A DNA stretch of 64,000 nt, taken from assembly GCA_022703585.1 (NCBI GenBank), contig JAKLDJ010000005.1:5353-69352 (forward strand), written 5' to 3'. Below, one piece after another: positions 3,001 through 53,675 of this stretch. The stretch comes from Candidatus Omnitrophota bacterium. GTDB taxonomy: Bacteria; Omnitrophota; Gorgyraeia; Zapsychrales; JAKLDJ01. The notes beneath the pieces are model-generated. The model was not told the origin of the DNA. It worked only from the letters and a program-made list of their open reading frames with translations, and did not search any database. The translations under genes and the position numbers were made by a program. Each line of letters starts with the position of its first letter. Position 1 is the first letter of the stretch.

Positions 3001-4197
3001 ATCCGCCCCTCGGCCTCCGCTCTGCTGTTCGGCAAATCGCGCGTCCGCAGGAATATCCCAGGAAGAATCCAATTCAAAACCTTTCGTACCGTCCTGGTAA
3101 GTAAATGTCGTCTCCGGCAATGCCGTAACCCCATCTGCACCGTACTGTCGGACTGATGTCAACAACGTCCGGCCGGTTACGCCGCTATAGCTATATCCTA
3201 AAACATAACGTCCTTGCAAAACCTCTCCGACATACGATGAGATTTGGGAGATTCTTTTGCGCGTTCCAACAAGAAAACGAGTCCGGTAAGACGACACCAA
3301 ATCATTTCTGTCTTCGAGGTCAAACCGGAGGCTGGCAAAAGGCTGCAGCCCCGTGGCGGAATTGCCGGTATAATCAATGCGCTGCGGATAAAGTTGCTGC
3401 TGGTCCTTAAGATACGTAACCGTCATATAATTACCGCTTAGATCCTCCACTCTGTCTAAACACCACTTAAAAATATGACTGCTGTCTGCCGGATCTGCCT
3501 GCCGCGAATCATCGCTCTGCCCAAAATAATATTTAACCCCTTTTTTATCGGTAATAACCCAGCCGCCGGACAATAATTCTATTTTCATAAATGCGCCTTC
3601 GATCTTTGTCCGGTAAAAACCAGACGCCGTGTCGTAAACCAATTCCTGCATTGAGCCGGCCTGCGTGAGCACAAAGGTATCCGAGGCATTATATTGGGGT
3701 GCGCCCTTTTTCGTCGAGCGCTGGATATTGCCAAGTTCCAGAATCCATCCCATGCCGAGCAAGCCGCTGGAACTCGCGGAGCTGTAAAAAAGATTGACGC
3801 TGGGCTGAATACCTGCCCGGCCCGCGGGCACAGCAATCGGGACCGACAAGGCAGCACTTCCGGTTGAAGAATCGACCTCGACACGGCTGGTTGAGGCAAA
3901 GAGAGCGCGAAAATCGATCGCCGCGTTCTGTGCTGAGGCCGGAATTACACCGGATTGCGAGCTCTCCGCAGCCTGACCTTCCTGAGAAACAGCATTATTA
4001 GAAGAAGATAGAACTTCTTCGGATGCCTGTTGCGAATCTCTGTCAGGATTAACAGTTTTTGTATGCGAATCAGGGCTTTCTTTTTGAATTAGTCCCGGGG
4101 GTTCTTCGGCGCACAGTACAGGCAGATGACAAAACGGAAAATTTAATAAGAATAACGAAAGAAATAGTCCGGATACAGAAAATATTCTTCGGCGCAT
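1..4197 (-). CDS. RHS/YD-repeat toxin-like protein (Tc-toxin TcB/TcC-like architecture), N-terminal ~1399 aa; C-terminus lies beyond window start
   Basis: Manual translation of the minus strand gives a continuous ORF from ATG at 4197 to the window edge. It has an N-terminal signal peptide (MRRRIFSVSGLFLSLFLL). A SpvB-like segment follows (PSVNLFYSSASSSGLLGMGWILELGNIQRSTKKGAPQY). Then come several FG-GAP/VCBS-like repeats (DVNADGYPD, DINGDGWVD, DLNGDGLLD, DINGDGLSD, DANADGMADF), then classic YD repeats (YDAMGRAIQTT, YDYLGRKV, YDALNRLT, YDDDAVPGSKGRLTQAEY). It is absent from the ORF track only because it lacks a stop within the window. Confidence 0.85.
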   Translation of the reverse strand, partial: MRRRIFSVSGLFLSLFLLNFPFCHLPVLCAEEPPGLIQKESPDSHTKTVNPDRDSQQASEEVLSSSNNAVSQEGQAAESSQSGVIPASAQNAAIDFRALFASTSRVEVDSSTGSAALSVPIAVPAGRAGIQPSVNLFYSSASSSGLLGMGWILELGNIQRSTKKGAPQYNASDTFVLTQAGSMQELVYDTASGFYRTKIEGAFMKIELLSGGWVITDKKGVKYYFGQSDDSRQADPADSSHIFKWCLDRVEDLSGNYMTVTYLKDQQQLYPQRIDYTGNSATGLQPFASLRFDLEDRNDLVSSYRTRFLVGTRKRISQISSYVGEVLQGRYVLGYSYSGVTGRTLLTSVRQYGADGVTALPETTFTYQDGTKGFELDSSWDIPADARFAEQQSGGRGADLGVRIADVNADGYPDILKYHEYNGGPQTRKTFLHNKDKAWVQSGDWNFPGNLAVFQNTSGEIDREWGVRVADINGDGWVDLVRYFQRDPYWGGIQVSNEVYISNKSNGWVYDPDWMMPYRQNPPQDPWYDPLPITLERGQPVYGYHEFWGSVLADVNADGYEDFIRSKEDAGYSSHYTFLNAMPGGSKGWQRNSTWDTPVSVYADFERGSTLVDLNGDGLLDIFYRKDGTAAVYINTGAGWAGGLGSSWEDTFGYGDLVDGSTQFADINGDGLSDLIIATDTQHVTLINTGHGWIRDSGWDLTGGANFKNYGTRLLDANADGMADFIIHWNGNTPQMYINKGKAPDLLVEAHNGAGAMTSIEYEPSTHYQNDFLPFPIQTVKTTTLSDGFGHSYITHYVYANGLWNTQEREFRGFGFVRVQDDEGNYSNTYFLQDDIYKGRVERQESYDMNGNLYGKVVNSWDYQEIAPGINFVFLQQKDNFIYDGDITGKRTQEQYFYEESPQNGNLTKAVSLGEVDLDTGEDVASDSRSVETEYLGNDSNWINGLPKQVTVKNHSGEMVRQSRFYYDGHQNIDDLPVKGFLTKKTDWSGSNVNPTVSFAYDEYGNLISTSDALQHVTTTDYDSDYHMFPLAVTNALNHQAVNEYYGVNGVPLDSGDGFHGLWGQLKSTTDPNNKKGRKSYDVFGRVVATVSPLDSIEYPTSTVEYQFSDDHAMVTTHQREKSGQVGTIDSVQFYDGLGRLIQTKSESATPGEFTVGGQTEYNSRGLPVKKYFPFFSTNPINSIDPINPNNPHATITYDAMGRAIQTTNSDGTYVTAIYDDWTSTTIDENGHKQKSYADAYGRLIKKEEYFGTDGRSPHYPASSYTLYATTLYAYDSEGNLTQTQDAHGNITTITYDYLGRKVSMNDPDMGFWQYGYDAAGNLTQQTDAKNQVMEFHYDALNRLTNKNDGGNFNVDYTYDDDAVPGSKGRLTQAEYSLSDKTRFSQYDDLGRELESVKT

Positions 4198-4310
4198 GAC
4201 CAAACCCTCTGTTTGAACTTTTGGGTTGAAATGGGCTTTTGTTTGCTTCGCCCAAGCGCTTCATGTGCGCTTTATCTGGGGACAGACCCCGCCATAACCA
4301 ACATAGGCTT

Positions 4311-5000
4311 AGGGACGCTCTTTTGGCGCTATTGAAGTCTGTCCCATCCTTCAGATACTGGGGACAGACTTCCGATCAACCGAAAGAGCGTCCCTGATCC
4401 CAATGAGCCCTGGAACATCCAGCGAATTTAAAAGCTCGTCATAAACACCCGATACTCTCAGTCGATAACTACTCCATTGATAATCTGATGCTGATTGAAC
4501 AATTTCGGCCCGTACGGGATTCTGCTCGATATACTCAATGCAACCCAGAAAATAGTCCTCCGAACTTATTGCCATACTTTTGAAACGTCCCTGCCATAGA
4601 TGGCCGCAGGTATGATGTCGGGCATTAAAATATAATGCGTAAGACTGATCCAATCCTTGCATAAATTTTGGTAGATCCCTGACGACACATGGTTTCACCA
4701 ATAAATGGACATGATTTGGCATCAGACAATAGCCAAATAGAAGAACTTTAAACTTCATCTTATATCTTCTCAGCAATCTCAGGTAAACCTCATAATCTTG
4801 GCTAACCTTAAATACATTTTGTTTCTGGTTACCCCTGGACATAATGTGATAGAAATTATTTTCGGGTAAAAATCGTGCAGTCCTCGGCATAACTTCTCCT
4901 CTGTATTCTTCAGGGACGCTCTTTTGGCGCTATTGAAGCCTGTCCCATCCTTCAGATACTAGGGACAGACTTCTGTTCAGCATAAAGAACGTCCCTGATA
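4311..5000 (-). mobile_element. IS200/IS605-like REP-RAYT unit: tyrosine transposase flanked by two ~88 bp near-identical structured repeats
   Basis: Near-identical direct repeats at 4311-4398 and 4912-5000 (AGGGACGCTCTTTTGGCGCTATTGAAG..CTGTCCCATCCTTCAGATACT.GGGACAGACTTC...AAGA.CGTCCCTGAT). Each contains nested palindromes (GGGACGCTCTTT/AAAGAGCGTCCC and GTCTGTCCC/GGGACAGAC). They bracket a Y1-HUH transposase gene. Confidence 0.7.
4351..4890 (-). CDS. REP-associated tyrosine transposase (RAYT) / IS200-family TnpA-like Y1 HUH transposase
   Basis: 179 aa. It has the HUH motif (NHVHLLV) and a downstream conserved Tyr region (QWSSYR), typical of the IS200/RAYT family. The 3' end of the ORF lies inside the flanking repeat. 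Confidence 0.7.
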   Translation of the reverse strand: MPRTARFLPENNFYHIMSRGNQKQNVFKVSQDYEVYLRLLRRYKMKFKVLLFGYCLMPNHVHLLVKPCVVRDLPKFMQGLDQSYALYFNARHHTCGHLWQGRFKSMAISSEDYFLGCIEYIEQNPVRAEIVQSASDYQWSSYRLRVSGVYDELLNSLDVPGLIGIRDALSVDRKSVPSI

Positions 5001-5713: not shown

Positions 5714-6067
5714 TTATAGCTTTTTAATAAGACTCAAAATCATCCGCATCTCATAAATTACAGAATCCACTAATGGTCTGCTATTAACTTCGGACAAATA
5801 CTGCCGTTTTCCTGAAAGAATAATCTGGGTTTCAAGCTCAGCGCAGGATCCCAAAGAAATATACAGAAACTGTGTATACTCCTTCGTGTGATGACGCACA
5901 AAACCCTCGGCAATATTCGACGGGATTGAAACGGCTGCCCGACGCATTTGAGTCGTTAAGATAAATAGCTCGCTTTTGGGATATTGATCAGTAAAAAAAT
6001 AGATTTTTTCAGCAATCTCTATTCCTTTTTGCCAAATTTTTAAATCTTTGTAATCCTTAACTTTCAT
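5714..6067 (-). CDS. Four-helix-bundle protein, Avd-like / 23S rRNA intervening-sequence protein family (TIGR02436/PF05635-like)
   Basis: 117 aa. It carries the family core LKIWQKGIEIAEKIY...QMRRAAVSIPSNIAEGF...FLYISLGSCAELETQII. It is flanked by inverted repeats at 5681-5713 and 6088-6117. Confidence 0.8.
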   Translation of the reverse strand: MKVKDYKDLKIWQKGIEIAEKIYFFTDQYPKSELFILTTQMRRAAVSIPSNIAEGFVRHHTKEYTQFLYISLGSCAELETQIILSGKRQYLSEVNSRPLVDSVIYEMRMILSLIKKL

Positions 6068-8811: not shown

Positions 8812-9225
8812 GTGAGACGGAACAACCATTGGCTCGGAGACACAACGGAAAAAATGGAAAAAGAACCGGGATATAAAAATCTCATCGTTTGGAAGAATAC
8901 ACGCACATTAAGAGGTCTCATTTACCAGATGTGCAAAGGGTTTCCTCAGGCAGAGATGAGACGTTCAAGCCAGATGAGAGATTCGGCGAGATCGGTCAAA
9001 CAGAATATTCAAGAAGGTTACGTAAAATCACTGCCTTCCTACATCAATCATCTCAATATTGCCATGGGTTCGCTGTCGGAATTGCGAGGCGACATCGACG
9101 ATTGTCTTGAAGATAGGTTGATTACCAAAGAAAATTTCTTGTCTATTAATGAATTGGCCGGAAAGACAGAATATCTTTTAAAACGGTTGATTCAATCATT
9201 GATTCGAAAGAGGGATAGTCGATGA
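8812..9225 (+). CDS. Four-helix-bundle protein, Avd-like / 23S rRNA IVS protein family; true start probably the internal Met near 8854
   Basis: It carries NLIVWKNTRTLRGLIYQMCKGFPQAEMRRSSQMRDSARSVKQNIQEGY...SLSELRG, matching the family pattern. The first ~14 codons of the annotated ORF lie inside the upstream inverted repeat. Confidence 0.7.
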   Translation: MRRNNHWLGDTTEKMEKEPGYKNLIVWKNTRTLRGLIYQMCKGFPQAEMRRSSQMRDSARSVKQNIQEGYVKSLPSYINHLNIAMGSLSELRGDIDDCLEDRLITKENFLSINELAGKTEYLLKRLIQSLIRKRDSR

Positions 9226-9271
9226 ATTTCAAACCCATACTAACCCCTACTATCCCATTTTACCCCCTTCT

Positions 9272-9311
9272 GCCCCCTTCTGCCCCCTTCTGCCCCCTTC
9301 TAACCCCTAAA
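9272..9311. repeat. Tandem decamer CCCCCTTCTG x4 inside the right inverted-repeat arm of the Avd cassette
   Basis: Direct reading: cccccttctgcccccttctgcccccttctgcccccttct. Confidence 0.9.
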
Positions 9312-9346
9312 CTTTTATCTCTCAAACCCATAGTCAAGGAGCCAGT

Positions 9347-9709
9347 ATGAAAAAACCAAAAGTCCTAATTTGCGATGATGAAGAGGGAATTCGCGAGTCT
9401 TTGAAGTTAATCCTAAGCGACCACTACGATCTCATATTAACCGAAAGCGGTGAGCAGTGCTTAGAGTGTATCGCGAACGCAAAAGATATCGGGCTCGTCC
9501 TTATCGATATCAAGATGCCCAAAGTAAGCGGCCTGGAGATTCTGCAGAAGATCAAGGAGAAACGCCCGGATCTAAAAGTTATCGTCGTCACCGGCTATAA
9601 AAGCGTCGAGACGGCAACCGAGGCGGTGAAGCTTGGTGCGGCGGGATATATTGTTAAGCCCTTCAAATCGAATGAAATACTCGCTGCGGTTCAAAATAAT
9701 ATAAAGTAA
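9347..9709 (+). CDS. Single-domain response regulator (CheY-like receiver)
   Basis: 120 aa. It has VLICDDEEGIRESL, the conserved Asp context LIDIKMPKVSG, and KVIVVTGY...GAAGYIVKPF. Confidence 0.85.
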   Translation: MKKPKVLICDDEEGIRESLKLILSDHYDLILTESGEQCLECIANAKDIGLVLIDIKMPKVSGLEILQKIKEKRPDLKVIVVTGYKSVETATEAVKLGAAGYIVKPFKSNEILAAVQNNIK

Positions 9710-9789
9710 TCGATTGGCTAACACTGAGGCCTGCTTTAAAAGGCCGAACGTGTGAAACCTTTTAAGTCACAAGAAATATTAAAGACGGT

Positions 9790-9990
9790 TAAATCACTTA
9801 TATAGAAACATAAGGTTATTGTGTTTATTGGGTTCCTTGAGTTTATAGGGTTCCCGTCTAAAACATTTTACTGCGCGTAATAACTCAATGAACCCAACCC
9901 AATGAGTTCAAATAACCCAAAGAACTCAATAAACCCAATAGCCCAATAAACTCAATGGACTCAACAAACCCAACAACCATCCAAAGACCA
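9790..9990. repeat. Cluster of short dispersed repeats of the AACCCAATAAAC/TCAAT family, both orientations
   Basis: GTTTATTGGGTT ... GTTTATAGGGTT ... AACCCAACCCAATGAGTTCAAATAACCCAAAGAACTCAATAAACCCAATAGCCCAATAAACTCAATGGACTCAACAAACCCAACAACC. The same family occurs at 600-660 and 42340-42460. Confidence 0.8.
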
Positions 9991-11675
9991 TGATTCACTT
10001 AAATCCGTTTGCGATCGCAAACCTTATTATCGCTATTACATATTTTCCGCTTTTCATACTTATTGCCATCAAAGGGAAAACAAGAATAGCAAGAGTCTAT
10101 TCCCTTCACATTCTCGCGATATGCCTCTGGGGTATCGGCGCTTTCCTGGGTGGCATAAACCAGAACCAAGCAATTTCGATTAATCTATGGAAATTTGCAT
10201 ATTCCGCAGTAATCTTTATACCCATTTTCTTTCTTCACTCTGTATTGATTTTAACAAAAAGAAATTCGAGATTCTTGATTACGCTAATATATATTCAAGC
10301 CATTTACTTTCTTTGGGAAGCCCAGAGCGGTGGCATGTTTTCTTCTGTAAGACTTGTTTTTAATTCATTCTATTACGTTAATGGAAAAATCATCTATCTT
10401 TACTCATTTATCTCTTGGGTAGTTACAGTTTCATTCGCTCACCTGCTACTTATTCAATATTATAAAACTAGCTATCCGGGACAAAAAGAACAAATTGCCT
10501 CTTTAATACTCGCAATCATAGGTTTCTTAGGCGGTGCCATGAACTTCTTGCCAGGCTTCAATATAAATATCTACCCACACGGGAATCTTCTTGTGCCCAT
10601 CCATTCGATTATCGTTACCTACGCAATTCTAAAACACCAATTATTAGATATCATCGTCGTAATCAAGAAAAGTCTAATTTATTCAATTCTAATCACCTCG
10701 ATTACGGTCACTTACTTAATTTTAGTTATTTTATCAGAGAGACTACTCCAGGGAACCATCGGCTATCAATCACTCCTCGTAAGTGTTGGCATCGCTTTCT
10801 TAATCGGACTTGTATTTAGTCCCCTGCGAAATAAAATTCAATATTTCGTTGATAAATACTTCTTTAAAGGCACCCAAGCCCAAATCGCAGAGGAAAATGA
10901 ACGCCTGCGACAAGAAGTTGCCCAGGCTGAGAAGCTTAAAACCGTCGCCACCTTGGCCAGCGGCATGGCTCACGAAATAAAAAATCCGCTGACGGCGATA
11001 AAAACTTTCGTCGAATACCTGCCCGAGCGAAAAGACAACCCCGAATTTCTCGATAAATTCACACGGATCGTCGGAGCAGAAGTTGACAGGATTGACGGCC
11101 TGGTTCACCAATTGCTGGAATTTGCCAAGCCCTCTCCTCTTGCCTTAAAAGAAACTAATATCCATCAATTAATAGACGAAACCTTAAGCCTTCTTAATAA
11201 TCAACTTGTTCAGCATAAAATTGATTTAATCCGAGACTATAATGCCGACCGCGACCAGACATTAAATATTGACCCCAATCAAATACGTCAGGCGCTTTTG
11301 AATATTTTTCTAAATGCGATCGAGGCGATGAAATACGGCGGGACGCTTCGCGTGCAGACTGAAGACTACAGACTAAAGACTAAAGACCAAAGCTCGCAGA
11401 AGTCTTTGGTCTCTGGTCTTCAGTCTGGGGTCCATAAAGGCTTCTTAAAGATAACAATTTCCGACACCGGCTCCGGCATACACCCTAAGGACCTGCCTCA
11501 CGTTTTCGATCCCTTCTTCTCAAAAAAAGATCACGGCACCGGCTTAGGGTTAGCCATTACGCACGGGATTATTCAGGAGCATGGGGGGAAAATTAAAGTT
11601 GAGAGTGAGTTGGGGAAAGGAACAGAAGCTATTCTAGAGTTGCCGATAATTGGCAGTGAAGAAAATAAGGGATAG
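9990..11675 (+). CDS. Sensor histidine kinase with N-terminal 7TM sensor domain (HisKA_7TM-like), HisKA and HATPase_c
   Basis: 561 aa. Multiple TM helices carry the motif YAILKHQLLDI shared with the two other kinases. H-box MAHEIKNPLTAI; N/G boxes NIFLNAIEAM, ISDTGSGI, GTGLGL. Confidence 0.85.
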   Translation: MIHLNPFAIANLIIAITYFPLFILIAIKGKTRIARVYSLHILAICLWGIGAFLGGINQNQAISINLWKFAYSAVIFIPIFFLHSVLILTKRNSRFLITLIYIQAIYFLWEAQSGGMFSSVRLVFNSFYYVNGKIIYLYSFISWVVTVSFAHLLLIQYYKTSYPGQKEQIASLILAIIGFLGGAMNFLPGFNINIYPHGNLLVPIHSIIVTYAILKHQLLDIIVVIKKSLIYSILITSITVTYLILVILSERLLQGTIGYQSLLVSVGIAFLIGLVFSPLRNKIQYFVDKYFFKGTQAQIAEENERLRQEVAQAEKLKTVATLASGMAHEIKNPLTAIKTFVEYLPERKDNPEFLDKFTRIVGAEVDRIDGLVHQLLEFAKPSPLALKETNIHQLIDETLSLLNNQLVQHKIDLIRDYNADRDQTLNIDPNQIRQALLNIFLNAIEAMKYGGTLRVQTEDYRLKTKDQSSQKSLVSGLQSGVHKGFLKITISDTGSGIHPKDLPHVFDPFFSKKDHGTGLGLAITHGIIQEHGGKIKVESELGKGTEAILELPIIGSEENKG

Positions 11676-13022: not shown

Positions 13023-13415
13023 TCACTCGCATCGATCATAGATGCGCCGTCTGATATCTATAGATTCATTGCCGAAGTTAACCAAATAGCCTAGCTTGTA
13101 CTCTGTGCCGCTTAAGTAATAGAAAAGCTGTTTTTCAAATACTTTCGGAAGATTCAGCAAGGATTTAATTTCAACAATAATTTTGTCATCGATGACAAAA
13201 TCCGGCTCATAAACACCTACATGTTTCCCGTGAAATCGGATTTTAATTCTCGGCTTATCAACATATTTTATCCCACGTTCTTCAAAGCATATTTTGAGAG
13301 ATTCGTGATAAATTTGCTCCTTATGTGCCGGACCGAGCTCGTTATAAACATCATAAAAACACCCAACCAGCTTATACGACAATTCCTTATGCGGAAAATG
13401 CTCTACTTTTGCCAT
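13023..13415 (-). CDS. GxxExxY family protein (PD-(D/E)XK-like, TIGR04256-like)
   Basis: 130 aa. It has the GxxExxY signature YNELGPAHKEQIYHESL followed by EPDFVIDDKIIVEIK (a PD-ExK-like DxxxxEIK). It is flanked by long inverted repeats at 12973-13018 and 13420-13464. Confidence 0.65.
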   Translation of the reverse strand: MAKVEHFPHKELSYKLVGCFYDVYNELGPAHKEQIYHESLKICFEERGIKYVDKPRIKIRFHGKHVGVYEPDFVIDDKIIVEIKSLLNLPKVFEKQLFYYLSGTEYKLGYLVNFGNESIDIRRRIYDRCE

Positions 13416-13882: not shown

Positions 13883-14266
13883 TTAGCGTTTAGAGTCCAT
13901 CTTGTTCTGTAATCGCAAAATCATGGCACTCAGCATTTTCAGTATTTCTGTAAGTAAATTATCAATCCGTTGATAATCTGCAGCAACAATAAATTCCAGA
14001 CGCTTTGCTATAATCAATTGCGTCTCAAGCTCAGAGGCAGAACCTTTTGCGATATATAAAAATTGAATATATTCTTTTCGATGATTGCGCTGATAGCCTT
14101 CCGCAATATTTGAAGATATCGCAACAGCTGAACGACGCATTTGCGAAACAAGACCGTATAGTTCATCATGTGGCAATTGCCGCGTTAGCCTATACACATC
14201 TAAGACTAATTCGACCGATTTCTGCCATACAATTAAATCTTTATGCGACTGAATTTTCTCGCTCAT
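13883..14266 (-). CDS. Four-helix-bundle protein, Avd-like / 23S rRNA IVS protein family
   Basis: 127 aa. It carries LIVWQKSVELVLDVYRLTRQLPHDELYGLVSQMRRSAVAISSNIAEGYQRNHRKEYIQFLYIAKGSASELETQLIIA. It is flanked by inverted repeats at 13861-13882 and 14286-14314. Confidence 0.85.
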   Translation of the reverse strand: MSEKIQSHKDLIVWQKSVELVLDVYRLTRQLPHDELYGLVSQMRRSAVAISSNIAEGYQRNHRKEYIQFLYIAKGSASELETQLIIAKRLEFIVAADYQRIDNLLTEILKMLSAMILRLQNKMDSKR

Positions 14267-16497: not shown

Positions 16498-17601
16498 TTA
16501 AATTTTACTATTTTTTAGATAAATAGATTTGATATTTTGCAAATCTTCTTCTGAGTAAGCATAATTACCGAAGTAAAACGGAGATGTTTTGAATCCGTGC
16601 TTCAGAGCAATGCTTTCAATTTCATGAATTTTATCCTCCGTAATACTGCCTCGACCAATCGAGTAATTCTCTATCTTTTCTTCTAAGGCTAATAACATTG
16701 CTTCTGCAAGGCAACCAAAAACGATACCATCAGGAAATAAAGAGTGCCACTTCTCACCAATTATCGATTCGAAATTTGGTAATTTTGCTTTACCTCCATC
16801 AAAAATTAAGACGTCGTTCCTAAAATTATTAATCTTCTTCGGAATTGCAGGAGGAATGGAAACGTCACAAAAGATGCTTCCAGGCTTTAGGATTGCAACA
16901 TCAAACAATGGTATGGCCGAACTTGTAACACTTAAAATTACATCTCCGTCCGAAATCGCTTTGCTTGGATTTCGTTCAATTCTTACATCTTTCTTACTTG
17001 ACAAAGAAACTACGAGTTTGTCAAGTTTGTCACGACTACGGGCCACAAGAACTATTCTCGTAAATATTCTAGAAAGAATTTTTGTACAGATTGAACCTAT
17101 GTCACCAGTTGCACCAAGCACAACAAGTTTTGCGTTATTAGTATTAAAACCAAGTATATTTATCGCTTTTAAAACTGAGTCAACGGCAAGAAAAGCTGTA
17201 TATGTGTTTCCTGAAGTTACTGCAACATCAACATTCTTTGATATAGCTTCCCCTTCATTGCCAATAACCGAAGTAAAAGCAGCTAATCCAATAATATCGG
17301 CCTTAAGCAGTTTCGCTTTCGCGCAACACTTGATAATTTTATTTAATATTGTCGCTTCATTAAAATAATAAAACTGCTCAGGTAATAACGGGCACATGAT
17401 GGCATGTCCTTCAGTTACACTACCAGCATAAGAAGTTACGTTCCTGGCAGATATTACCACATGGGGAGGAAGGCGGGGAATTAACCTCTTTATCCATATT
17501 AATGGAATAAATTTTAAAACTACGGAAAAAAAAGGATAATATATAAAGTTTTCACGCGAATCAAGACCAGTGAAATGAGTTATCATGGCAAAACGTTTCA
17601 T
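16498..17601 (-). CDS. Long-chain acyl-ACP reductase (AAR)-like NAD(P)-dependent reductase
   Basis: 367 aa. It shows collinear similarity to cyanobacterial AAR: AMITHFTGLD vs GLIGHLTSLE; FTSVIGNEGEAI vs FTSIIFENFDL; TSGNTYTAF vs TTGNTHTAY; the Rossmann segment VLGATGDIGSICTKIL vs VVGATGDIGSAVCRWL; CLAEAMLLALEE vs CFAEAMLLEFEG. Confidence 0.65.
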   Translation of the reverse strand: MKRFAMITHFTGLDSRENFIYYPFFSVVLKFIPLIWIKRLIPRLPPHVVISARNVTSYAGSVTEGHAIMCPLLPEQFYYFNEATILNKIIKCCAKAKLLKADIIGLAAFTSVIGNEGEAISKNVDVAVTSGNTYTAFLAVDSVLKAINILGFNTNNAKLVVLGATGDIGSICTKILSRIFTRIVLVARSRDKLDKLVVSLSSKKDVRIERNPSKAISDGDVILSVTSSAIPLFDVAILKPGSIFCDVSIPPAIPKKINNFRNDVLIFDGGKAKLPNFESIIGEKWHSLFPDGIVFGCLAEAMLLALEEKIENYSIGRGSITEDKIHEIESIALKHGFKTSPFYFGNYAYSEEDLQNIKSIYLKNSKI

Positions 17602-17620
17602 GCAAGATTTCCTTATCGTC

Positions 17621-18460
17621 TCAACTAATGCACTTTAGATTATCAAGAAAATATTCATTCGTTATGCCGACCCCCCCATCAACTGTAATAATTTGCCCTG
17701 TAATGTTATTTGATAAATCAGAAGCAAGAAACAACGCTACGTTTGTTATGTCTGAAAGAGGGATAAAACTCCCTAAGGGTATTTTCTTTTCCATTTCAAT
17801 TAAATTGCTTCTCTTGTTATTCCCCTTTATCCTCAAAAGTCTAGTATACGCATGGACAAAATTCTTGGTTAAAACTGGTCCGGGACAAATAGAATTGACT
17901 AAAATTCCATATTCACTCCATTCAATGGCTAAAGTTCGAGTTAGAGCATCAAGCCCCGCCTTACAAGCGTGAAAATGTGAAAATCCAGGGTATGCTTTAC
18001 CACCCGAGTATGCGGTAATGTTGATTATCTTCTTCCGTCCGCGTTGTTTTATCATGTGATTTCCAACCAAAACTGACAAGTATAAATGCCCCTTCAAATT
18101 TGTATCGATTGACAAATCGATCATATTGGGAAGTAGCTTCTCTGCTTGAATCATAAAATTTATCGATGCATTATTGAGTAAAACATCAATTCGCCTAAAT
18201 TTTTTTACAATCTCGCCAATTGTTTGTTTTAATTCTTGATAATCCCTTATATCACTTTTATACAAAAAGAGCGGCTTGCTCATATATGATTTATTATTAA
18301 AAGATTTCCTAAGATTACCCAGGTCCCTGCCAAGCACTATTACGCAGGCGCCTTGCTCTAAAAACTCGTCAGTAATAGCCCGGCCTATTCCGGTGCGACC
18401 ACCTGTCACAACGCAGATTTTCTTAGATAATATTCTTTTGACAAAATTTATTTTCATCAC
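17621..18460 (-). CDS. SDR family oxidoreductase
   Basis: 279 aa. It has the TGGRTGIGRA glycine motif and a YSGGKAYPGFSHFHACK YxxxK-like active-site region. Confidence 0.75.
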   Translation of the reverse strand: MMKINFVKRILSKKICVVTGGRTGIGRAITDEFLEQGACVIVLGRDLGNLRKSFNNKSYMSKPLFLYKSDIRDYQELKQTIGEIVKKFRRIDVLLNNASINFMIQAEKLLPNMIDLSIDTNLKGHLYLSVLVGNHMIKQRGRKKIINITAYSGGKAYPGFSHFHACKAGLDALTRTLAIEWSEYGILVNSICPGPVLTKNFVHAYTRLLRIKGNNKRSNLIEMEKKIPLGSFIPLSDITNVALFLASDLSNNITGQIITVDGGVGITNEYFLDNLKCIS

Positions 18461-18542
18461 ATTCTCCTCGCTCTTCAGATTTAAGAAAATTTGGGCAGAA
18501 TTAAAAATACTTCATTTCCAAATACCTAATATTTTTCTAATC

Positions 18543-20234
18543 TCAGTTCTTTGGCAACTCAATGGTAAACTTCGTCCCTTCACCCAATTTACTTTCCGCC
18601 GCTATTGTTCCACCGTGTAATTTAATAATCTCCTGCGTAATACTAAGTCCTAAGCCGATACCGTCTCGTTTGGTCGTATGGAATGGCTCAAAAAGTTTCT
18701 TGAGGTTTTCGGGAGAAATGCCGCAGCCATTGTCAGCAATTATTATCCTGACATAATCTCTGCGGACTTGAGACTCAAGACCAAAGACTAAAGACTTTTG
18801 GTCTGCGCTCGTTGGTTTTTGGTCTTTAGTCTCTGGTCTCTGGTCTGTGGTCTGAACAAAAAGCTCTCCACCCTCACCCATCGCCTGGATAGCATTAAGG
18901 AACAAATTTAAGAAAACCTGCTTGAGCTGTTCTTCATCTCCCTGAATAAGACCGTCAGGATCCTGATAGTCCTTTTTAATACTGATTTTCTTAAGAGCGA
19001 AGCTGTCCTGCAGCAATGTCAGGGTTGAGTCAATCAAAGCACAGACGTTAACCGGCTTTAAATCAACCTGCCGGGGCTTGGCGAGATTTAATAGTTGATT
19101 AATGACCTTCTCTATCCGTTCCACTTCTTTGGGGATTAACGTGTTAAATTTCTGCCTGAATTCTGCATCATGGTATTTTTGCGGTAGATAATCGAGATGT
19201 GTCTTAATAGCAGTTAAAGGATTCCTGATTTCATGGACAATTGAGCTGGCCAGTTGTCCCACATAGGCGAGTTTCTCTTTGTGAAAGAGCTCCTGCTGAA
19301 GCCGACACCGTTCCTGGTCAAGGCTTTCTAGGGTGCCCTGAAAAAACCGCTTATCTAGTATGTGCTGGATCCAATCTCGCAATGGATAAAGCAATGCTGC
19401 AATAATAAACACGGCAAATAAATTAGAAAAAAACGATTGATAGCCAACCATGCCTTGAAATAATTTTCCTACGCTAACAACAAAGATGAGATAACCTGCT
19501 GTAATAATCGCTAGCAACGCCGAATAAACCAATCCTTTCTTAATAATAATGTTAATATCCATCAGCTGATGCTGCATTATTGCATAAGTTATAATCAAAG
19601 GATATACTGCAAGAAAGAAATACGGGTAGGGATACACCTCAATCCTAAACGCAGAGGGAAAAAAACTATGCGGACCAATCCATCCAATTATCGATGCAAT
19701 AATAAAGTATTTCATTTGCATCCGCCTTATTCCTGAGCTATGTCTGAAATCAACAAGCATGAGAAATAACGTGTACAAAAGTAGAATCCAGTAAAAACCT
19801 ATATAAAAAACTAAAAAGATCGGACTTTTATACTTAGGCCAATCGAAACAGTAGAATTGCCCAAAAACTAATCTTAAGTCTCCGAAAAATAGCTCCCTTT
19901 TCGTAAGAATAATCGCAAAGAAAAAGAATGCCAGAGCATAAACTAAAGCAATTAAATTCTTTTTCTTAAGATTGATGAATTTGCAAATAAAATGAAAAAA
20001 TATAGCCGGACAAAAAACTCCACCGATATATGCAAATTGCCACCAGAAGAAAGCTATTTCCTTAGATTGCGTTGTAGAAAATTTGTATGCTCCAAATCCC
20101 CAAATTGCACTGCCTATGCTCATTAAAATCCATGTTTTTGTTAGTTTTCGATCGCCACTCTTAAAAAGCATTAACACTGCCATCATTAAATTAGCAATAA
20201 AAATCAATATAGACGAAATCGCAAAGGCGTTCAT
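18543..20234 (-). CDS. Sensor histidine kinase with 7TM sensor domain; likely starts at Met 20234, overlapping the fabF stop as ATGA
   Basis: 7TM region with YAIMQHQLMDI; H-box VHEIRNPLTAI; NLFLNAIQAM, DNGCGI, GIGLGL. The ORF track start at 20258 would overlap fabF by 28 nt. The internal ATG at 20232-20234 overlaps the fabF TGA at 20231-20233. Confidence 0.8.
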   Translation of the reverse strand: MNAFAISSILIFIANLMMAVLMLFKSGDRKLTKTWILMSIGSAIWGFGAYKFSTTQSKEIAFFWWQFAYIGGVFCPAIFFHFICKFINLKKKNLIALVYALAFFFFAIILTKRELFFGDLRLVFGQFYCFDWPKYKSPIFLVFYIGFYWILLLYTLFLMLVDFRHSSGIRRMQMKYFIIASIIGWIGPHSFFPSAFRIEVYPYPYFFLAVYPLIITYAIMQHQLMDINIIIKKGLVYSALLAIITAGYLIFVVSVGKLFQGMVGYQSFFSNLFAVFIIAALLYPLRDWIQHILDKRFFQGTLESLDQERCRLQQELFHKEKLAYVGQLASSIVHEIRNPLTAIKTHLDYLPQKYHDAEFRQKFNTLIPKEVERIEKVINQLLNLAKPRQVDLKPVNVCALIDSTLTLLQDSFALKKISIKKDYQDPDGLIQGDEEQLKQVFLNLFLNAIQAMGEGGELFVQTTDQRPETKDQKPTSADQKSLVFGLESQVRRDYVRIIIADNGCGISPENLKKLFEPFHTTKRDGIGLGLSITQEIIKLHGGTIAAESKLGEGTKFTIELPKN

Positions 20235-21457
20235 TTGTAGTCCTTCAATACCAAACACGCATTATTCCCCCCAAACGCCTGGGAATTATTCAGCACCACG
20301 CTAGCTTTATGCTTGCGCCCTTTATTCGCCACGCAATCAATCTCGCACTCCGGGTCCTGCTCTTCTAAATTAATCGTCGGTGGAATCTCTTGTTTCTGAA
20401 TCGCCAAACAACAGGCAATGGCTTCCAATGCCGCTGCCGCACCCATAGTATGACCGAGCATAGATTTTATCGAGCTTGTAGGGATTTTTTGCGCACGGCT
20501 ACCAAAAACTTTCGCAATTGCCTTACATTCTACCCCATCATTTTCGGGCGTACCCGTACCATGAGCACTAATATAATCTACCGCACCAATATCCGCTCCG
20601 AGATTCTTAATCGACCGCATAATAGCACAAGCGACACCTTCAATTGAGGGAGTAGTCATATTCTGGGCGTCACAAGATAATCCATACCCTAAAACCTCGG
20701 CGTAAATATGAGCCTTGCGCTTTTGTGCACTTTCCAAAGCCTCCAACAAAAGAATACCCGCGCCTTCACCCAAGATCATGCCTTTGCGGTTTTTATCGAA
20801 AGGCTGACATTTTTCGGGAGCCATAGCAAATAAACGGCCGAATCCGGTAAAGGCAATCCTTGATAATGCGTCAACTCCACCAGCCAGCATAAAATCAGCC
20901 TTATTAGAACGAATCAAATCAAACGCCCTCCCAATCGCATAATTTCCTGCCGCGCAAGCGTTGGCAAAAATAATATTTTCTCCTTTAATATTTAACTCAT
21001 GCGATACATTTGTCGAAATAGAGTTTGCCGGATACGCTAACGCTAATATGCCCTGCACACTTATACGTTCCAACTTGGTATTATTCTCAATAATATTTTC
21101 AATTACGCGAGATTCACCCATTGTAGTACCCATGCAAATCCCTACCCTATAATCACGCAAGGTCTCAAATAGAATTTTAGAATCCTTAATCGCCAACCTA
21201 CTAGCCGCCACCGCCATCTGGGACGCACGGCCCATGCGAGCGACACGGCGCTTATTCATAAACTGGGTCGGGTCAAAATTCTTAATCTCGCCACCGTAAT
21301 GGCGGTCATACGCCGAGGTGTCAAAGGCTTCAATACGGCTGATGCCGGATTTGCCGGCCATCAAGTTTTTCCAGAAGAGCTCCCAACCGATGCCAAGTGA
21401 GGAAATTACGCCTAAGCCGGTAACTACAACACGTCTGTTGTTTAATAAATTTTTCAT
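20231..21457 (-). CDS. fabF: 3-oxoacyl-ACP synthase II (KAS II)
   Basis: 408 aa with an intact catalytic triad context: NACAAGNYAIG (Cys), SAHGTGTPENDGVE (His), GHTMGAAAALE (His). Confidence 0.85.
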   Translation of the reverse strand: MKNLLNNRRVVVTGLGVISSLGIGWELFWKNLMAGKSGISRIEAFDTSAYDRHYGGEIKNFDPTQFMNKRRVARMGRASQMAVAASRLAIKDSKILFETLRDYRVGICMGTTMGESRVIENIIENNTKLERISVQGILALAYPANSISTNVSHELNIKGENIIFANACAAGNYAIGRAFDLIRSNKADFMLAGGVDALSRIAFTGFGRLFAMAPEKCQPFDKNRKGMILGEGAGILLLEALESAQKRKAHIYAEVLGYGLSCDAQNMTTPSIEGVACAIMRSIKNLGADIGAVDYISAHGTGTPENDGVECKAIAKVFGSRAQKIPTSSIKSMLGHTMGAAAALEAIACCLAIQKQEIPPTINLEEQDPECEIDCVANKGRKHKASVVLNNSQAFGGNNACLVLKDYK

Positions 21458-21505: not shown

Positions 21506-21925
21506 TTACGTTATTCGTCGCCCTTTCAATTTAAAATTATTCCATGCCTCAGATAGATTATATAATTGTCGTCCTGTTTTATCGTAAACATCAATAAGTT
21601 TCACACAAAGCTCTTTATTAATATACTGAGAATATATGTCCCGACAATGACTCAAGGAAACCACCAATTCATTGCACTCACCCATGGCATCATCGAGATA
21701 TTTCTGGAATCCTTGCCGTTGATGCTTTTTCGCATAACCTTCGGCAATCAATCTCGGGACAGATTTGCAACTGCGGCTCAGCTGGTCTTTTAAGTCATAT
21801 TTCTCTGATTCCGGTAATTTAGGAACTATCTGTGTCATGACGGTAATCGACAATTCATAGGCATTCCGATAAACCTCTAAATCATTAAAGCTTGCAATTG
21901 GCTTCTTTTTAAGAATCTCTTCCAT
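21506..21925 (-). CDS. Four-helix-bundle protein, Avd-like / 23S rRNA IVS protein family, inserted between fabZ and fabF
   Basis: 139 aa. It carries LEVYRNAYELSITVMTQIVPKLPESEKYDLKDQLSRSCKSVPRLIAEGYAKKHQRQGFQKYLDDAMGECNEL. It is flanked by GGGTTACGGTTAAGGTTACG (21463-21484) and CGTAACCTTAACC... (21931 onward). Confidence 0.75.
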   Translation of the reverse strand: MEEILKKKPIASFNDLEVYRNAYELSITVMTQIVPKLPESEKYDLKDQLSRSCKSVPRLIAEGYAKKHQRQGFQKYLDDAMGECNELVVSLSHCRDIYSQYINKELCVKLIDVYDKTGRQLYNLSEAWNNFKLKGRRIT

Positions 21926-33122: not shown

Positions 33123-33132
33123 TAGAAATTAA

Positions 33133-33246
33133 CCGGTAACTTTCTACTCTCCCATAGCCTCGCGGCCATAGTACCATCGACCTCGAAGGGCTTAACTTCC
33201 GTATTCGGAATGGGAACGGGTGTTGCCCCTTCGGCAATGTTACCGG
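33133..33246 (-). rRNA. rrf: 5S ribosomal RNA
   Basis: The reverse complement reads ...GGCCGCGAGGCTATGGGAGAGTAGAAAGTTACCGG, with conserved 5S motifs (CCGAATACGGAAGTTAAGCCC, GAGAGTAG). Confidence 0.8.
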
Positions 33247-33364
33247 AATAGCTTTGAATATTGGCTATTGCGCGCCCAGCTTTCGCTGGGCGCGCACTAG
33301 CACGACAATTACGTCATTGAAAGATAAACTTCAACCAAAAAAATCATAATAATGTATAAGATGA

Positions 33365-36337
<2,973 letters not shown>

Positions 36338-36489
36338 ACATTATATTGCCGTTATTAACCAATTTCTTGGCGCTTAACCGGACTGATTCTCGATTTGATT
36401 GTAGTTTGTCTACCTATGACGTAATTGTCAAAGAACATACTTGCGCGCCAGAGGCGCGCAAAGAAATGTTAAAAATTTTATTGCCTTTT

Positions 36490-36565
36490 TGGTGGAGCTG
36501 AGGAGGATCGAACTCCTGACCCCCTGCTTGCAAAGCAGGTGCTCTCCCAGCTGAGCTACAGCCCC
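36490..36565 (-). tRNA. tRNA-Ala (anticodon TGC), CCA encoded
   Basis: Reverse complement: GGGGCTGTAGCTCAGCTGGGAGAGCACCTGCTTTGCAAGCAGGGGGTCAGGAGTTCGATCCTCCTCAGCTCCACCA. Confidence 0.9.
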
Positions 36566-36568
36566 TTC

Positions 36569-36648
36569 TAGCTTTCAGTCGTCAGTCATCAGCTTTCAGC
36601 ATTACTGCTCATCTATGCTGATAGCTGAAGGCTGATGGCTGATAGCAT
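36569..36648. repeat. Palindromic GCTTTCAGC/GCTGAAAGC-family repeat inserted in the tRNA-Ala/tRNA-Ile spacer of the rRNA operon
   Basis: TAGCTTTCAGTCGTCAGTCATCAGCTTTCAGCATTACTGCTCATCTATGCTGATAGCTGAAGGCTGATGGCTGATAGC. Confidence 0.8.
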
Positions 36649-36652
36649 AAAA

Positions 36653-36728
36653 TGGTGGGCCCAAGTGGACTTGAACCACTCACCCCCGCGTTATCAGCAC
36701 GGTGCTCTGCCAGATGAGCTATGGGCCC
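36653..36728 (-). tRNA. tRNA-Ile (anticodon GAT), CCA encoded
   Basis: Reverse complement: GGGCCCATAGCTCATCTGGCAGAGCACCGTGCTGATAACGCGGGGGTGAGTGGTTCAAGTCCACTTGGGCCCACCA. Confidence 0.9.
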
Positions 36729-37037
36729 AAAGCATCTTCGGTAATACCGAAAATCGGGGCCCGTAGCAAAGCCTTTAGAAGACAGGGGTGCTTGTCAGAC
36801 CCCCAAAAAAATAAATGCCAAGTCATCATGAAAAGCTGAACTGCTCATGATCATTTCATTTGTTACGTTTGTTGCTGTTGCTGGTTTTTCTTTTCCTTTG
36901 TGAAAAGAATCCTGGTTGCGTGCGTTAGAAAAAGCAATATTGCTATCACTTATCCCTACGCTTCGCTCCGGGATTATTTTTCTTAACGCTTACGTTCGCC
37001 CTTACGGGCTCCGTAAGCGTAACGAAAAATAAAAAGA

Positions 37038-38620
<1,583 letters not shown>

Positions 38621-38797
38621 TAATGACTTGGCTTTAAAACATTTAAACAGGCAATAAAATTTTCAAAGAGCAAAAAAAATTCAGGCGGCATGCCTTGCGG
38701 CATGCCGCAGAATTTGGAGAATACGTTTTAAATGATTAAGATCGAAGTGGTTCTTGAATTACTTCTCGCTGAAGTGTTCCTTCGTTGAGGTGGCACA

Positions 38798-43234: not shown

Positions 43235-43256
43235 GCATAACTCCTTTGATTTAAAT

Positions 43257-44396: not shown

Positions 44397-44483
44397 TGAA
44401 AGCTATCAGTCGTCAGTCTTCAGCTTTCAGCAACTATCAGCTGAAGGCTGCTGAAAGCTGACGGCTGATAGCTGAGAGCCAAG
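44393..44483. repeat. Palindromic intergenic repeat of the GCTTTCAGC/GCTGAAAGC family
   Basis: TGAAAGCTATCAGTCGTCAGTCTTCAGCTTTCAGCAACTATCAGCTGAAGGCTGCTGAAAGCTGACGGCTGATAGCTGAGAGC. Confidence 0.8.
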
Positions 44484-44487
44484 GAAG

Positions 44488-44940: not shown

Positions 44941-44961
44941 TTTTTATCCTTTCTTTGTAAA

Positions 44962-45882: not shown

Positions 45883-45962
45883 GGCGCCCTCTTTTTTCGG
45901 ATTACCTTAAAAAAATTCTCAATTCTTTAAATTCTAGAAACAAATTCTGCAAACACCTTTCC

Positions 45963-46766: not shown

Positions 46767-46851
46767 TTTGAGCTTTCAGCTTTCAGCTCTCAGCTTTCAG
46801 CAGCTGTCAGCTAATGCTTTTGCTGGCTGCTGAAGGCTGCTGACTGACAGC
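46767..46851. repeat. Palindromic intergenic repeat of the GCTTTCAGC/GCTGAAAGC family
   Basis: GAGCTTTCAGCTTTCAGCTCTCAGCTTTCAGCAGCTGTCAGCTAATGCTTTTGCTGGCTGCTGAAGGCTGCTGACTGACAGC. Confidence 0.8.
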
Positions 46852-47088: not shown

Positions 47089-47112
47089 CTATAAACCTCC
47101 TTTTAAAATATT

Positions 47113-48345: not shown

Positions 48346-48356
48346 TTGCCTTCCTT

Positions 48357-53592: not shown

Positions 53593-53675
53593 CTTCGAGA
53601 ACTCCTTATCTGATTTTTAAAGATCGAAATAACCTTAGTCATGATAAAAATAATCGCTGCACGCGGGCTTTTTAG

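Follow-up and report, generated by a model that had tools for sequence, protein, structure and literature searches.

The locus described here raises the question of why a fatty-acid synthesis operon of a Candidatus Omnitrophota bacterium carries, beside fabF, a gene resembling the acyl-acyl carrier protein (ACP) reductase (AAR) of cyanobacteria, together with genes for membrane histidine kinases. The locus lies on the minus strand of a 64-kb stretch of contig JAKLDJ010000005.1 (GenBank assembly GCA_022703585.1, positions 5,353 to 69,352), which is called the window below and within which the gene absences reported here hold. All open reading frames (ORFs) of at least 130 aa in the window were annotated. 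The ORFs and coordinates agreed with those of an earlier sequence-only reading, in which fabF is followed by a seven-transmembrane (7TM) kinase (HK1), a short-chain dehydrogenase/reductase (SDR) and the AAR-like gene. These are followed by a second 7TM kinase (HK2), which was absent from that account. We consider it fairly probable that this is a fatty-acid operon in which a reductase of the AAR/PigE-N type, encoded beside fabF, releases aldehyde from acyl-ACP in an NADPH-dependent manner, and that a kinase and cyclic di-GMP (c-di-GMP) module follows it.

We compared the AAR-like protein with profile and structure databases. The best-scoring NCBIfam model was that of the PigE N-terminal reductase (NF053554; 174 bits, E 4e-51, model positions 49-360 of 837), and the AAR model TIGR04058 was matched nearly over its full length (positions 38-336 of 339; 120.1 bits, E 1.2e-34). 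Neither the cut-off of NF053554 (850 bits) nor the equivalog cut-off of TIGR04058 (449.7 bits) was reached. A sequence search of the PDB returned PigE (4PPM, E 3e-29) and AAR (6JZQ/6JZU, E 1e-25), and AAR of S. elongatus scored 94 bits with the window protein. Judged by these E-values, which are far beyond chance, the matches to AAR and PigE are homologies. Pfam gave PF01488 (Shikimate_DH) alone, at 30 bits and residues 151-262, which form the Rossmann part.

An AlphaFold2 model built with 35 homologues had a pLDDT of 92.3 and a pTM of 0.92. When this model was searched with Foldseek, the top seven PDB matches were all AAR chains (E 5e-26 to 8e-22, TM-score (TM) 0.74-0.84, 25-27% identity), and 6JZU was the best of them (E 5e-26, TM 0.78/0.83). 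Next were the TAD domains of carmabin (9E4S, E 3e-21, TM about 0.7/0.63, 17% identity). Glutamyl-tRNA reductase (0.31-0.34), shikimate dehydrogenase and amino-acid dehydrogenases reached a TM of only about 0.3. In the model the protein adopts the three-part fold of AAR, in which a Rossmann domain lies between an N-terminal and a C-terminal domain.

The residues that define AAR are 162-GATGDIG-168, the acyl acceptor C294, and R189, R193 and R314 (PMC7089970). The GATGDIGS loop of the window protein is identical to that of AAR, and R188, K192 and R317 align with R189/R193/R314 of the NADPH 2'-phosphate pocket. C297 aligns with C294 (FGCLAEAMLL/FACFAEAMLL). Across the 35 homologues C297, G163/G166/G169 and R188 were invariant and R317 was near-invariant; C297 was also conserved across clades. 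In PigE the N-terminal domain has been shown to act as a thioester reductase like AAR, and its Cys296 is the equivalent residue (PMC8341465). For the COG5322 domain of KecF, a release of polyketides from ACP in aldehyde form has been proposed (PMC6498172). Since the profile and PDB matches, the modeled fold and the retained AAR residues agree, the protein is a member of the AAR/PigE-N thioester-reductase superfamily, and the AAR homology that the sequence-only reading had given for 16498-17601 stands. The profile check it had called for likewise found a nearly full-length TIGR04058 match and the AAR-specific residues. The protein is not an equivalog of cyanobacterial AAR, because it scores 120 bits against a cut-off of 449.7, has no aldehyde-deformylating oxygenase (ADO) partner and falls in a clade apart from AAR in a neighbour-joining tree, which is crude.

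We then compared gene order among relatives. Eighty loci were fetched, their ORFs were called by our own script and clustered, and the contigs of the nearest relatives (L081-L085) were added; the trees of beta-ketoacyl-ACP synthases (KS) and AAR-like proteins were made by neighbour joining only. Two layouts were found in Omnitrophota. Layout A is KS(II)-AAR-like-FabG-ACP or FabZ-like-KS(I)-CrtI-like FAD oxidoreductase-HK2-REC-REC-HD-GYP (L002, L004, L006, L009, L011 and L013; variants L007, L012 and L018). Layout B is recG-rsmD-coaD-yceD-rpmF-plsX-fabH-fabD-FabZ-like-KS(I)-AAR-like-HK2-REC-HD-GYP (L015, L073 and L055), and the window has this layout with some changes. The order recG-...-plsX-fabH-fabD-fabZ-KS-...-AAR-like resembling the window is present in L015, L073, L055 and L081. 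In L081, whose homologue is 60% identical, the genes run plsX-fabH-fabD-FabA/Z-KS-SDR-AAR-like-HK2-REC-HD-GYP, and L082, with a 63% identical homologue, has KS-SDR-AAR-like. In 14 Omnitrophota loci the AAR-like gene immediately follows a KS gene, and in the remaining ones nothing but an SDR, kinase or FAD oxidoreductase gene separates the two. The AAR-like gene is kept across deeply diverged Omnitrophota (32-60% identity). Many Omnitrophota clusters (L002, L004, L006, L009, L011, L013, L018 and L083-L085) also hold a KS of a second clade, a dedicated ACP and an FAD oxidoreductase resembling CrtI/amine oxidase.

The operon context of the AAR-like gene is conserved and previously undescribed. 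We found no paper that mentions acyl-ACP reductase and Omnitrophica together, and none of the papers listed deals with ether lipids, fatty alcohols or plasmalogens of Omnitrophota. The titles and abstracts of papers on fatty acid biosynthesis in Omnitrophota say nothing on this gene. COG5322 was found only in the koreenceine papers and in a review of transaminase fusions.

The genes upstream of the AAR-like gene were assigned as follows. The KS encoded by fabF (KS1) has the Cys-His-His motifs ACAAG, HGTGT and GHTMGAA in its translation, and scored 417 bits with TIGR03150, below the cut-off of 494. In the KS tree its group includes the KS of layout B and the KS that comes after FabG-ACP in layout A. 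This is the canonical fabG-acpP-fabF position, and KS1 is therefore regarded as the FabF of this phylum despite the missed cut-off. The FabZ-like translation shows the motifs GHFP and EAAAQ, and its gene is kept at the same position in L015, L073 and L081. Our best explanation is that the region is the distal half of the Omnitrophota type II fatty-acid synthesis operon, rpmF-plsX-[fabH]-fabD-fabZ-like-fabF, and taken jointly we hold this with somewhat better than even confidence. Thus, of the "core" fatty-acid operon proposed earlier, the placement of the AAR-like gene within a plsX-fab operon stands, and the completeness of that core does not: fabH, fabG and acpP are not in this operon, and fabH is present in that of L081.

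The ATGA overlap noted earlier between fabF and HK1 is real. The TGA stop of fabF (20233-20231) overlaps the ATG of HK1 (20234-20232) by 4 nt, in the bases ...AAG GAC TAC AAA TGA ACG CC around 20231-20240, with an AAGGA Shine-Dalgarno-like motif 6 nt upstream of the ATG. The intergenic spacings from fabF to HK2 are -4, 85, 19 and 5 nt, so that HK2 starts 5 nt past the AAR-like stop. A promoter and terminator scan of 11.5-25.2 kb gave counts at or below the shuffled expectation, with no terminator-like site between the genes exceeding chance, and was uninformative about transcription units. We infer that these genes are co-transcribed and may be coupled in regulation.

The kinases and the genes beyond them form the second part of the locus. 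Both proteins fit the type of the HisKA_7TM sensor kinases, which is defined by an N-terminal 7TM region, a HisKA phospho-acceptor and HATPase_c: HK1 matched PF16927 (58 bits), PF00512 (45 bits) and PF02518 (90 bits), and HK2 matched PF16927 (55 bits), GAF and PF02518 (74 bits). HK2 is 63% identical to its L081 orthologue. Of the 16 Omnitrophota loci with enough downstream sequence, 15 have HK2-REC-(HD-GYP) after the KS/AAR-like cluster, the exception being L008. The gene upstream of HK2 varies with the layout and encodes the AAR-like protein, a KS or the FAD oxidoreductase. This linkage persists although the upstream gene changes, which suggests more than inherited gene order.

HK1 has a different history. 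Aligned over its full length with HK3, a kinase encoded on the opposite strand, HK1 shows 39% identity; with HK2 the value is 28-29%. HK1 is thus a paralogue of HK3, and a recent duplication of HK2 was ruled out. HK3, a REC gene and an HTH-cupin gene form a syntenic opposite-strand block in L014, L015, L024 and L073. No kinase lies between fabF and the SDR gene in L081 or L082, the two nearest relatives, and HK1 is therefore an insertion in the lineage of the window rather than the fixed part of the operon that the sequence-only reading had implied. In L083-L085, whose homologue is 57% identical, KS and the AAR-like gene are separated by the gene of a 582-aa 7TM kinase with 43% identity to HK3 and 34% to HK1, the junction being TAGATG, and in L008 the gene just before KS encodes an HK1-like kinase. 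By this comparison, kinases of the HK1/HK3 family have been placed within the fabF/AAR-like unit, or against it, on at least three occasions. The link between membrane kinases and lipid synthesis is therefore better supported than by a lone ATGA overlap, and the retention of HK2-REC-HD-GYP strengthens the link further. The repeated association suggests, and does not show, that membrane-sensing kinases and c-di-GMP signaling are coupled to this lipid branch. The block contains no DNA-binding response regulator.

The SDR is encoded between HK1 and the AAR-like gene. Its best NCBIfam match was PRK07677, 2,4-dienoyl-CoA reductase (167 bits, below the cut-off of 318), and its PDB matches were 3IMF, DECR1 (7UCW/1W6U), PECR (1YXM) and DECR2 (4FC6). 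The active-site motif, NITAYSGGKAYPGFSHFHACKAG, has Ala and Phe in place of the classical Ser and Tyr (NITAYSGG...FSHFHACKAG), and the classical SDR/FabG pattern Ser...Tyr-x-x-x-Lys is absent. A Tyr is aligned with DECR Tyr199, which belongs to the catalytic residues of DECR, and the Lys is retained. The motif is the same in the L081 and L082 orthologues (66-72% identity), whereas layout A has SDRs of the classical FabG kind (NISSxxG...NYxASKAG). The loss of the classical Tyr, the alternative Tyr with Lys and the best similarity all place the protein in the DECR/PECR type, as a relative and not as a PRK07677 equivalog. FabG and aldehyde reductase were both ruled out by the active-site motif; the SDR is unlikely to reduce an aldehyde to an alcohol and is probably a reductase of C=C bonds in enoyl or dienoyl thioesters. 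In L083-L085 the slot beside the AAR-like gene holds a CrtI-like FAD oxidoreductase and no SDR. The CrtI-like family also acts on C=C bonds, which hints, speculatively, that this enzyme replaces the SDR functionally.

By homology with AAR, the enzyme would work by a ping-pong mechanism, in which the acyl chain first moves from acyl-ACP to Cys297. The resulting acyl-enzyme thioester would be reduced by NADPH, bound through GATGDIG, R188, K192 and R317, and free fatty aldehyde would leave the enzyme. The SDR would most likely act on the C=C bond of an acyl thioester and not on the aldehyde. HK2-REC-HD-GYP would be the conserved signaling module after the cluster, with HK1 as a lineage-specific extra insertion. 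The acyl-ACP substrate and the aldehyde product are proposed here by analogy with AAR and PigE.

The fate of such an aldehyde was considered from the gene content of the window. No ADO-like sequence was found in the 64 kb, where tblastn with an ADO query gave a best E of 0.33 and ORF annotation showed nothing ferritin-like; the earlier remark that ADO is lacking nearby was thus correct. With no ADO, no alkane would be made, and alkane synthesis was rejected. No aminotransferase, WS/DGAT or PlsA/PlsR-type genes were found among the annotated ORFs of the window. An aldehyde dehydrogenase (53676-55154) and a B12-radical SAM protein (52123-53592) are encoded in the window, but 35 kb away and unlinked. 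None of the possible fates of the aldehyde, such as conversion to alcohol, ether lipid or amine, is encoded in the window.

We searched for the AAR-like family in other bacteria. A HMMER search, exhaustive over 1.84 billion representatives at 50% identity, gave 2,509 matches at E<=1e-3, 1,659 at E<=1e-10 and 260 at E<=1e-30, and the best 150 representatives all scored at least 147 bits. The close homologues are nearly all from metagenome bins of Omnitrophota. In a scan of one genome per GTDB species, relatives were present in at least 475 species genomes, including Omnitrophota, Bacillota (Limnochordia and Clostridia), Chloroflexota (Anaerolineae), Planctomycetota and Armatimonadota; the taxon labels come from records of metagenome-assembled genomes, and some labels of "Planctomycetales" and "Rhodocyclaceae" may be binning errors. 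The earlier statement that the enzyme is rare outside cyanobacteria is therefore false for the family, with its 1,659 clusters and at least 475 species genomes. Only the cyanobacterial AAR equivalog is restricted, and the window protein is not one.

Thirty of the best 150 representatives are fusions. A 308-aa domain (c1), which matched nothing in Pfam, NCBIfam or PDB, is fused to the N-terminus of the reductase in 13 of the 150, in proteins of about 700 aa (e.g. P0160, P0199, P0209, P0234 and P0247). In Bacillota (L016-L035 and others) c1 is the conserved upstream neighbour, in the context pyrG-rho-dus-...-c1-reductase-greA-lysS. It appears to be an obligate partner domain of the reductase. 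An SRPBCC/START-like lipid-binding domain is fused in 13 of the 150 by Pfam match, and two further SRPBCC fusions were suggested by BLAST against a neighbouring SRPBCC protein. These fusions fit a hydrophobic substrate or product. Three of the SRPBCC fusions carry an N-terminal PilZ domain (PilZ-SRPBCC-reductase; P0163, P0169 and P0181), and one of the 150 has a C-terminal GAF domain (P0260).

In Chloroflexota, the gene directly downstream of the reductase encodes REC with an apparent degenerate GGDEF (GGDDF), as read from the translation only; a large kinase and then a REC gene lie beyond it. In the Anaerolineae loci L049-L077 the reductase lies between a set of DUF4388-like, small GTPase, hydrolase, V4R and hexapeptide-repeat genes and the REC-GGDEF-like gene; the DUF4388-like, GTPase, hydrolase and GGDEF labels are readings of the sequence and not Pfam matches. 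The HD-GYP neighbour, the REC-GGDEF-like neighbour and the PilZ fusions thus tie the enzyme family to c-di-GMP and two-component signaling in three ways, and the link to c-di-GMP recurs in more than one phylum. In L036, L037, L045 and L070 the relatives adjoin a class III aminotransferase and an SRPBCC protein.

We analyzed base composition along the operon. The GC content at third codon positions (GC3) is 0.35 in the SDR gene and 0.27 in the AAR-like gene, whereas it is 0.45-0.58 in the genes on either side. L081 shows this dip too (9148-11092; 0.28 and 0.27 vs 0.42-0.50), although the SDR and AAR-like proteins of the window and L081 share only about 60-66% identity. A dip kept at this divergence is not the result of a recent transfer, and recent horizontal transfer was rejected as the cause of the low GC; the anomaly is old and has been maintained in this gene pair. 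An old acquisition with maintained codon bias, or low expression, is possible.

The window also contains four genes for four-helix-bundle proteins (23S rRNA IVS/TIGR02436) at 5714-6067 (minus), 8812-9225 (plus), 13883-14266 (minus) and 21506-21925 (minus). Together with a PD-(D/E)XK_3 gene at 13023-13415 (minus), they have a GC of 0.37-0.41 and are mutually 27-44% identical. Three of these five small genes sit between genes of the fab/kinase operon, at sites that are empty in L081, and they look like elements that insert themselves within operons.

Several points weigh against an acyl-ACP reductase that works within a regulated housekeeping operon. The protein is just 25-27% identical to AAR and far under the equivalog cut-off, so that substrate and chain length are not transferable from AAR. 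No aldehyde-consuming enzyme is encoded next to the AAR-like gene. The operon is without acpP, fabG and fabH. The low GC3 of the SDR and AAR-like genes could reflect a foreign origin, with a function not integrated with housekeeping fatty-acid synthesis, and the kinase association could be inherited synteny. TAD domains, which have a related fold, may use their Cys/NAD site for amidation rather than reduction (bioRxiv 10.1101/2024.10.28.620694).

Four other explanations were weighed on this background. The homologues are often named "shikimate dehydrogenase" or "predicted amino acid dehydrogenase" in public annotations, and the 30-bit PF01488 match points the same way. That the protein is a glutamyl-tRNA reductase, or a dehydrogenase of shikimate, quinate or amino acids, is nevertheless hardly credible. 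The Pfam match covers the Rossmann domain only, with no Shikimate_dh_N domain; the aroE models scored about 18 bits (cut-offs 196-295) and hemA (TIGR01035) 23 bits (cut-off 209.6), and the TM-scores were those given above. Shikimate/quinate dehydrogenase and glutamyl-tRNA reductase were thus rejected, and the placement in such a family that the sequence-only reading had named as evidence against itself was not obtained. It is also very improbable that the Cys/NAD(P) site serves something other than net thioester reduction, such as a TAD-like amidation or acyl transfer to another acceptor. TAD domains (9E4S) are the second-best structural relatives and their chemistry may not be simple reduction, but the window protein is nearer to AAR (TM 0.78-0.84, 27% identity) than to TAD (about 0.7/0.63, 17%), keeps the NADPH 2'-phosphate arginines where TAD binds NAD through Asp, and is a stand-alone protein and not the terminal domain of a nonribosomal peptide synthetase (NRPS).

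A more serious, though still unlikely, alternative is that the enzyme off-loads a specialised product of type II polyketide or fatty-acid synthesis and not a bulk precursor of membrane lipids, in which case the adjoining fab genes would be partly specialised. PigE, TamH and KecF perform a reductive release followed by transamination to an alkylamine or alkaloid, and the PigE-N model outscores the AAR model (174 vs 120 bits). The class III aminotransferase and SRPBCC genes beside some relatives agree with such a role, as do the atypically low GC3 of the SDR and AAR-like genes and the second KS clade, dedicated ACP and CrtI-like enzyme of many Omnitrophota clusters, which resemble the anammox genes kuste3603-3608. 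Set against this, the window has no aminotransferase or tailoring enzyme, and in particular no class III pyridoxal phosphate (PLP) aminotransferase of the PigE kind in the 64 kb or fused to the protein. The upstream KS groups with KS at the fabF position, and the AAR-like gene lies in an rpmF-plsX-fabD operon in four independent loci and is conserved over deeply diverged Omnitrophota. The explanation we take most seriously after our own concerns the kinases: HK1 and HK2 may be neighbours by genome history alone, with no role in lipid regulation and with ATGA as compact packing. This is a real possibility, although we lean against it. HK1 is missing in L081 and L082, the block has no DNA-binding response regulator, and small selfish-looking genes are also inserted in the operon, so that this stretch tolerates insertions. 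On the other side, HK2-REC-HD-GYP stays attached although the internal order differs, in L084, a separate lineage, KS and the AAR-like gene have a kinase of the HK1/HK3 family between them, another such kinase lies upstream of KS in L008, and there are the PilZ and GAF fusions and the Chloroflexota REC neighbour with its apparent, sequence-read degenerate GGDEF. We therefore retain as our reading a fatty-acid operon with an aldehyde-releasing reductase of the AAR/PigE-N type, followed by a kinase and c-di-GMP module.

The features of the operon and its immediate neighbours are collected in Table 1.

Table 1 Genes of the fatty-acid operon, the signaling module and the facing kinase locus in the window.
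Gene or product	Coordinates	Strand	Basis
recG	28827-26743	minus	
rsmD	26648-26082	minus	
coaD	26003-25518	minus	
yceD	25471-25058	minus	
rpmF (ribosomal protein L32), operon head	25029-24823	minus	68-aa ORF; L32p gene (PF01783) in the corresponding place of L081, 65% identity
plsX, phosphate acyltransferase	24740-23745	minus	TIGR00182, 348 bits (cut-off 243); PF02504
fabD, malonyl-CoA:ACP transacylase	23666-22713	minus	TIGR00128, 313 bits (cut-off 261)
Divergent FabZ/FabA-like dehydratase	22562-22122	minus	PF07977 FabA; FabZ models 79 bits, under the cut-off of 113
Four-helix-bundle (23S rRNA IVS-type) small gene, between fabZ-like and fabF	21925-21506	minus	PF05635/TIGR02436; GC 0.376
fabF-type beta-ketoacyl-ACP synthase II (KS1)	21457-20231	minus	NF005589, 402 bits (cut-off 387)
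HK1, orphan 7TM histidine kinase	20234 (ATG) or 20258 (GTG) to 18543	minus	HisKA_7TM, HisKA, HATPase_c
SDR, DECR/PECR-type short-chain reductase	18457 (or 18460) to 17621	minus	adh_short/adh_short_C2
AAR-like acyl-thioester reductase (predicted), 367 aa	17601-16498	minus	PigE-N and TIGR04058 matches
HK2, 7TM-GAF histidine kinase	16492-14318	minus	HisKA_7TM, GAF, HATPase_c
Second four-helix-bundle small gene, between HK2 and REC	14266-13883	minus	PF05635, 141 bits; TIGR02436
Single-domain REC response regulator, 119 aa	13852-13493	minus	REC-type matches only
PD-(D/E)XK_3 small gene, between REC and HD-GYP	13415-13023	minus	PF13366
GAF-HD-GYP, predicted c-di-GMP phosphodiesterase, end of conserved block	12961-11783	minus	PF13487 HD_5, PF01966 HD, GAF
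HK3, 7TM histidine kinase, convergent with the operon	9990-11675	plus	Kinase family matches; 39% identity to HK1
REC-only response regulator, upstream of HK3	9347-9709	plus	

Other parts of the window were annotated as well. A second lipid- or polyketide-like group at 42461-48429 (minus) contains KS2 (438 aa, fabF-like, below the cut-off), a divergent ACP (47088-46852), a cyclase/arylformamidase-like gene, CorA, SRPBCC (44488-44940), an MFS transporter and a FabG-like SDR (43234-42461); KS2 and the divergent ACP are neighbours, at 48429-46852. The region 52123-58395 (minus) holds the B12-binding radical SAM and aldehyde dehydrogenase (PF00171, 576 bits) genes mentioned above and methionine-salvage-like genes, namely Aldolase_II, PNP_UDP_1 and two IF-2B family genes, one of which is apparently split. 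A complete rRNA operon (16S, tRNA-Ile, tRNA-Ala, 23S, 5S) lies at 33131-38624 (minus), 5 kb upstream of the recG-fab string. At the left end, an ORF of at least 1,420 codons (1-4260, minus) runs off the window. Its product, with YD/RHS-type repeats and an N-terminus like a signal peptide, is probably a giant protein of the toxin or adhesin kind. Beside this ORF, at 4351-4890 (minus), is the gene of a REP-associated tyrosine transposase. A FecR/pretoxin-HINT protein is encoded at 61471-62895 (minus).

Aldehyde-forming AAR enzymes are associated with cyanobacterial alkane synthesis, and fused domains of this kind with a few pigment and alkaloid pathways. The present analysis adds a stand-alone branch of the AAR family that is a conserved part of the primary fatty-acid operon across an uncultured phylum, and related branches that are common in Bacillota and Chloroflexota; all of these are mis-annotated as shikimate or amino-acid dehydrogenases. 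The analysis shows that AAR-like enzymes are widespread beyond cyanobacteria, against the impression of rarity. It also suggests that the bacteria with these branches make an aldehyde- or alcohol-derived lipid or metabolite not recognised so far, offers the family as new candidate acyl-thioester reductases for biocatalysis, and makes a link between c-di-GMP/two-component signaling and lipid synthesis testable. A bolder and quite improbable version, which we put forward as speculation, would have the Omnitrophota fatty-acid operon hard-wired to 7TM kinases and c-di-GMP turnover (HK2-REC-HD-GYP, with HK1/HK3-type kinases inserted beside fabF). These would set how much acyl-ACP goes through the AAR-type reductase into fatty aldehydes and on to an as yet undescribed class of aldehyde- or alcohol-derived (e.g. 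ether-linked) membrane lipids, and the PilZ-SRPBCC-reductase fusions of other bacteria would be a one-protein version of the same lipid switch under c-di-GMP control.

Among known systems, cyanobacterial AAR (TIGR04058; 6JZQ/6JZU) is alike in its three-part fold (TM about 0.8), its length (341 aa, compared with 367 aa), the GATGDIGS loop, the Cys in the (F/G)C(L/F)AEAMLL helix and the Arg/Lys residues for the NADPH phosphate; it is also a stand-alone protein encoded beside fatty-acid genes. The window protein differs in being only 25-27% identical, in having no ADO partner, in lying within a plsX-fab operon and in forming a separate neighbour-joining clade. Omnitrophota are a non-photosynthetic, reportedly mostly anaerobic phylum. 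The PigE, TamH and KecF domains of prodigiosin, tambjamine and koreenceine synthesis share the best-scoring model (NF053554, 174 bits), the Cys (C296 in PigE), a type II KS/ACP context and reductive aldehyde release. PigE has a GYPGSIC loop in place of the GATGDIG kept by the window protein, and the window gene is not next to a class III aminotransferase and belongs to a housekeeping operon and not to a pigment or alkaloid cluster. The TAD of the polyketide synthase-NRPS proteins CarI/VatR (9E4S) has an AAR-like two-domain fold and an invariant Cys near the nicotinamide site, but it is a 400-aa C-terminal megasynthase domain, uses NAD and not NADP, and is about 17% identical.

The SDR can be compared with DECR1 (1W6U), PECR (1YXM) and the B. 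anthracis protein 3IMF, in which the classical Ser/Tyr are likewise replaced, Tyr199 is aligned and the Lys is kept. The window SDR is about 30-35% identical to them, and its substrate is presumably an ACP thioester and not a CoA thioester. For the Omnitrophota relatives, and not for the window, a further comparison is the candidate ladderane cluster kuste3603-3608 of anammox bacteria, which encodes ACP, FabZ, FabF, a non-canonical FabF, a CrtI-like desaturase and a radical SAM protein (PMC4790861). The Omnitrophota cluster is without a radical SAM gene, the kuste list is without an AAR-like gene and the window is without a CrtI-like gene. Common to the relatives and the anammox cluster, both from bacteria of the PVC group, are a pair of KS types, a dedicated ACP, a divergent FabZ and a CrtI-like enzyme.

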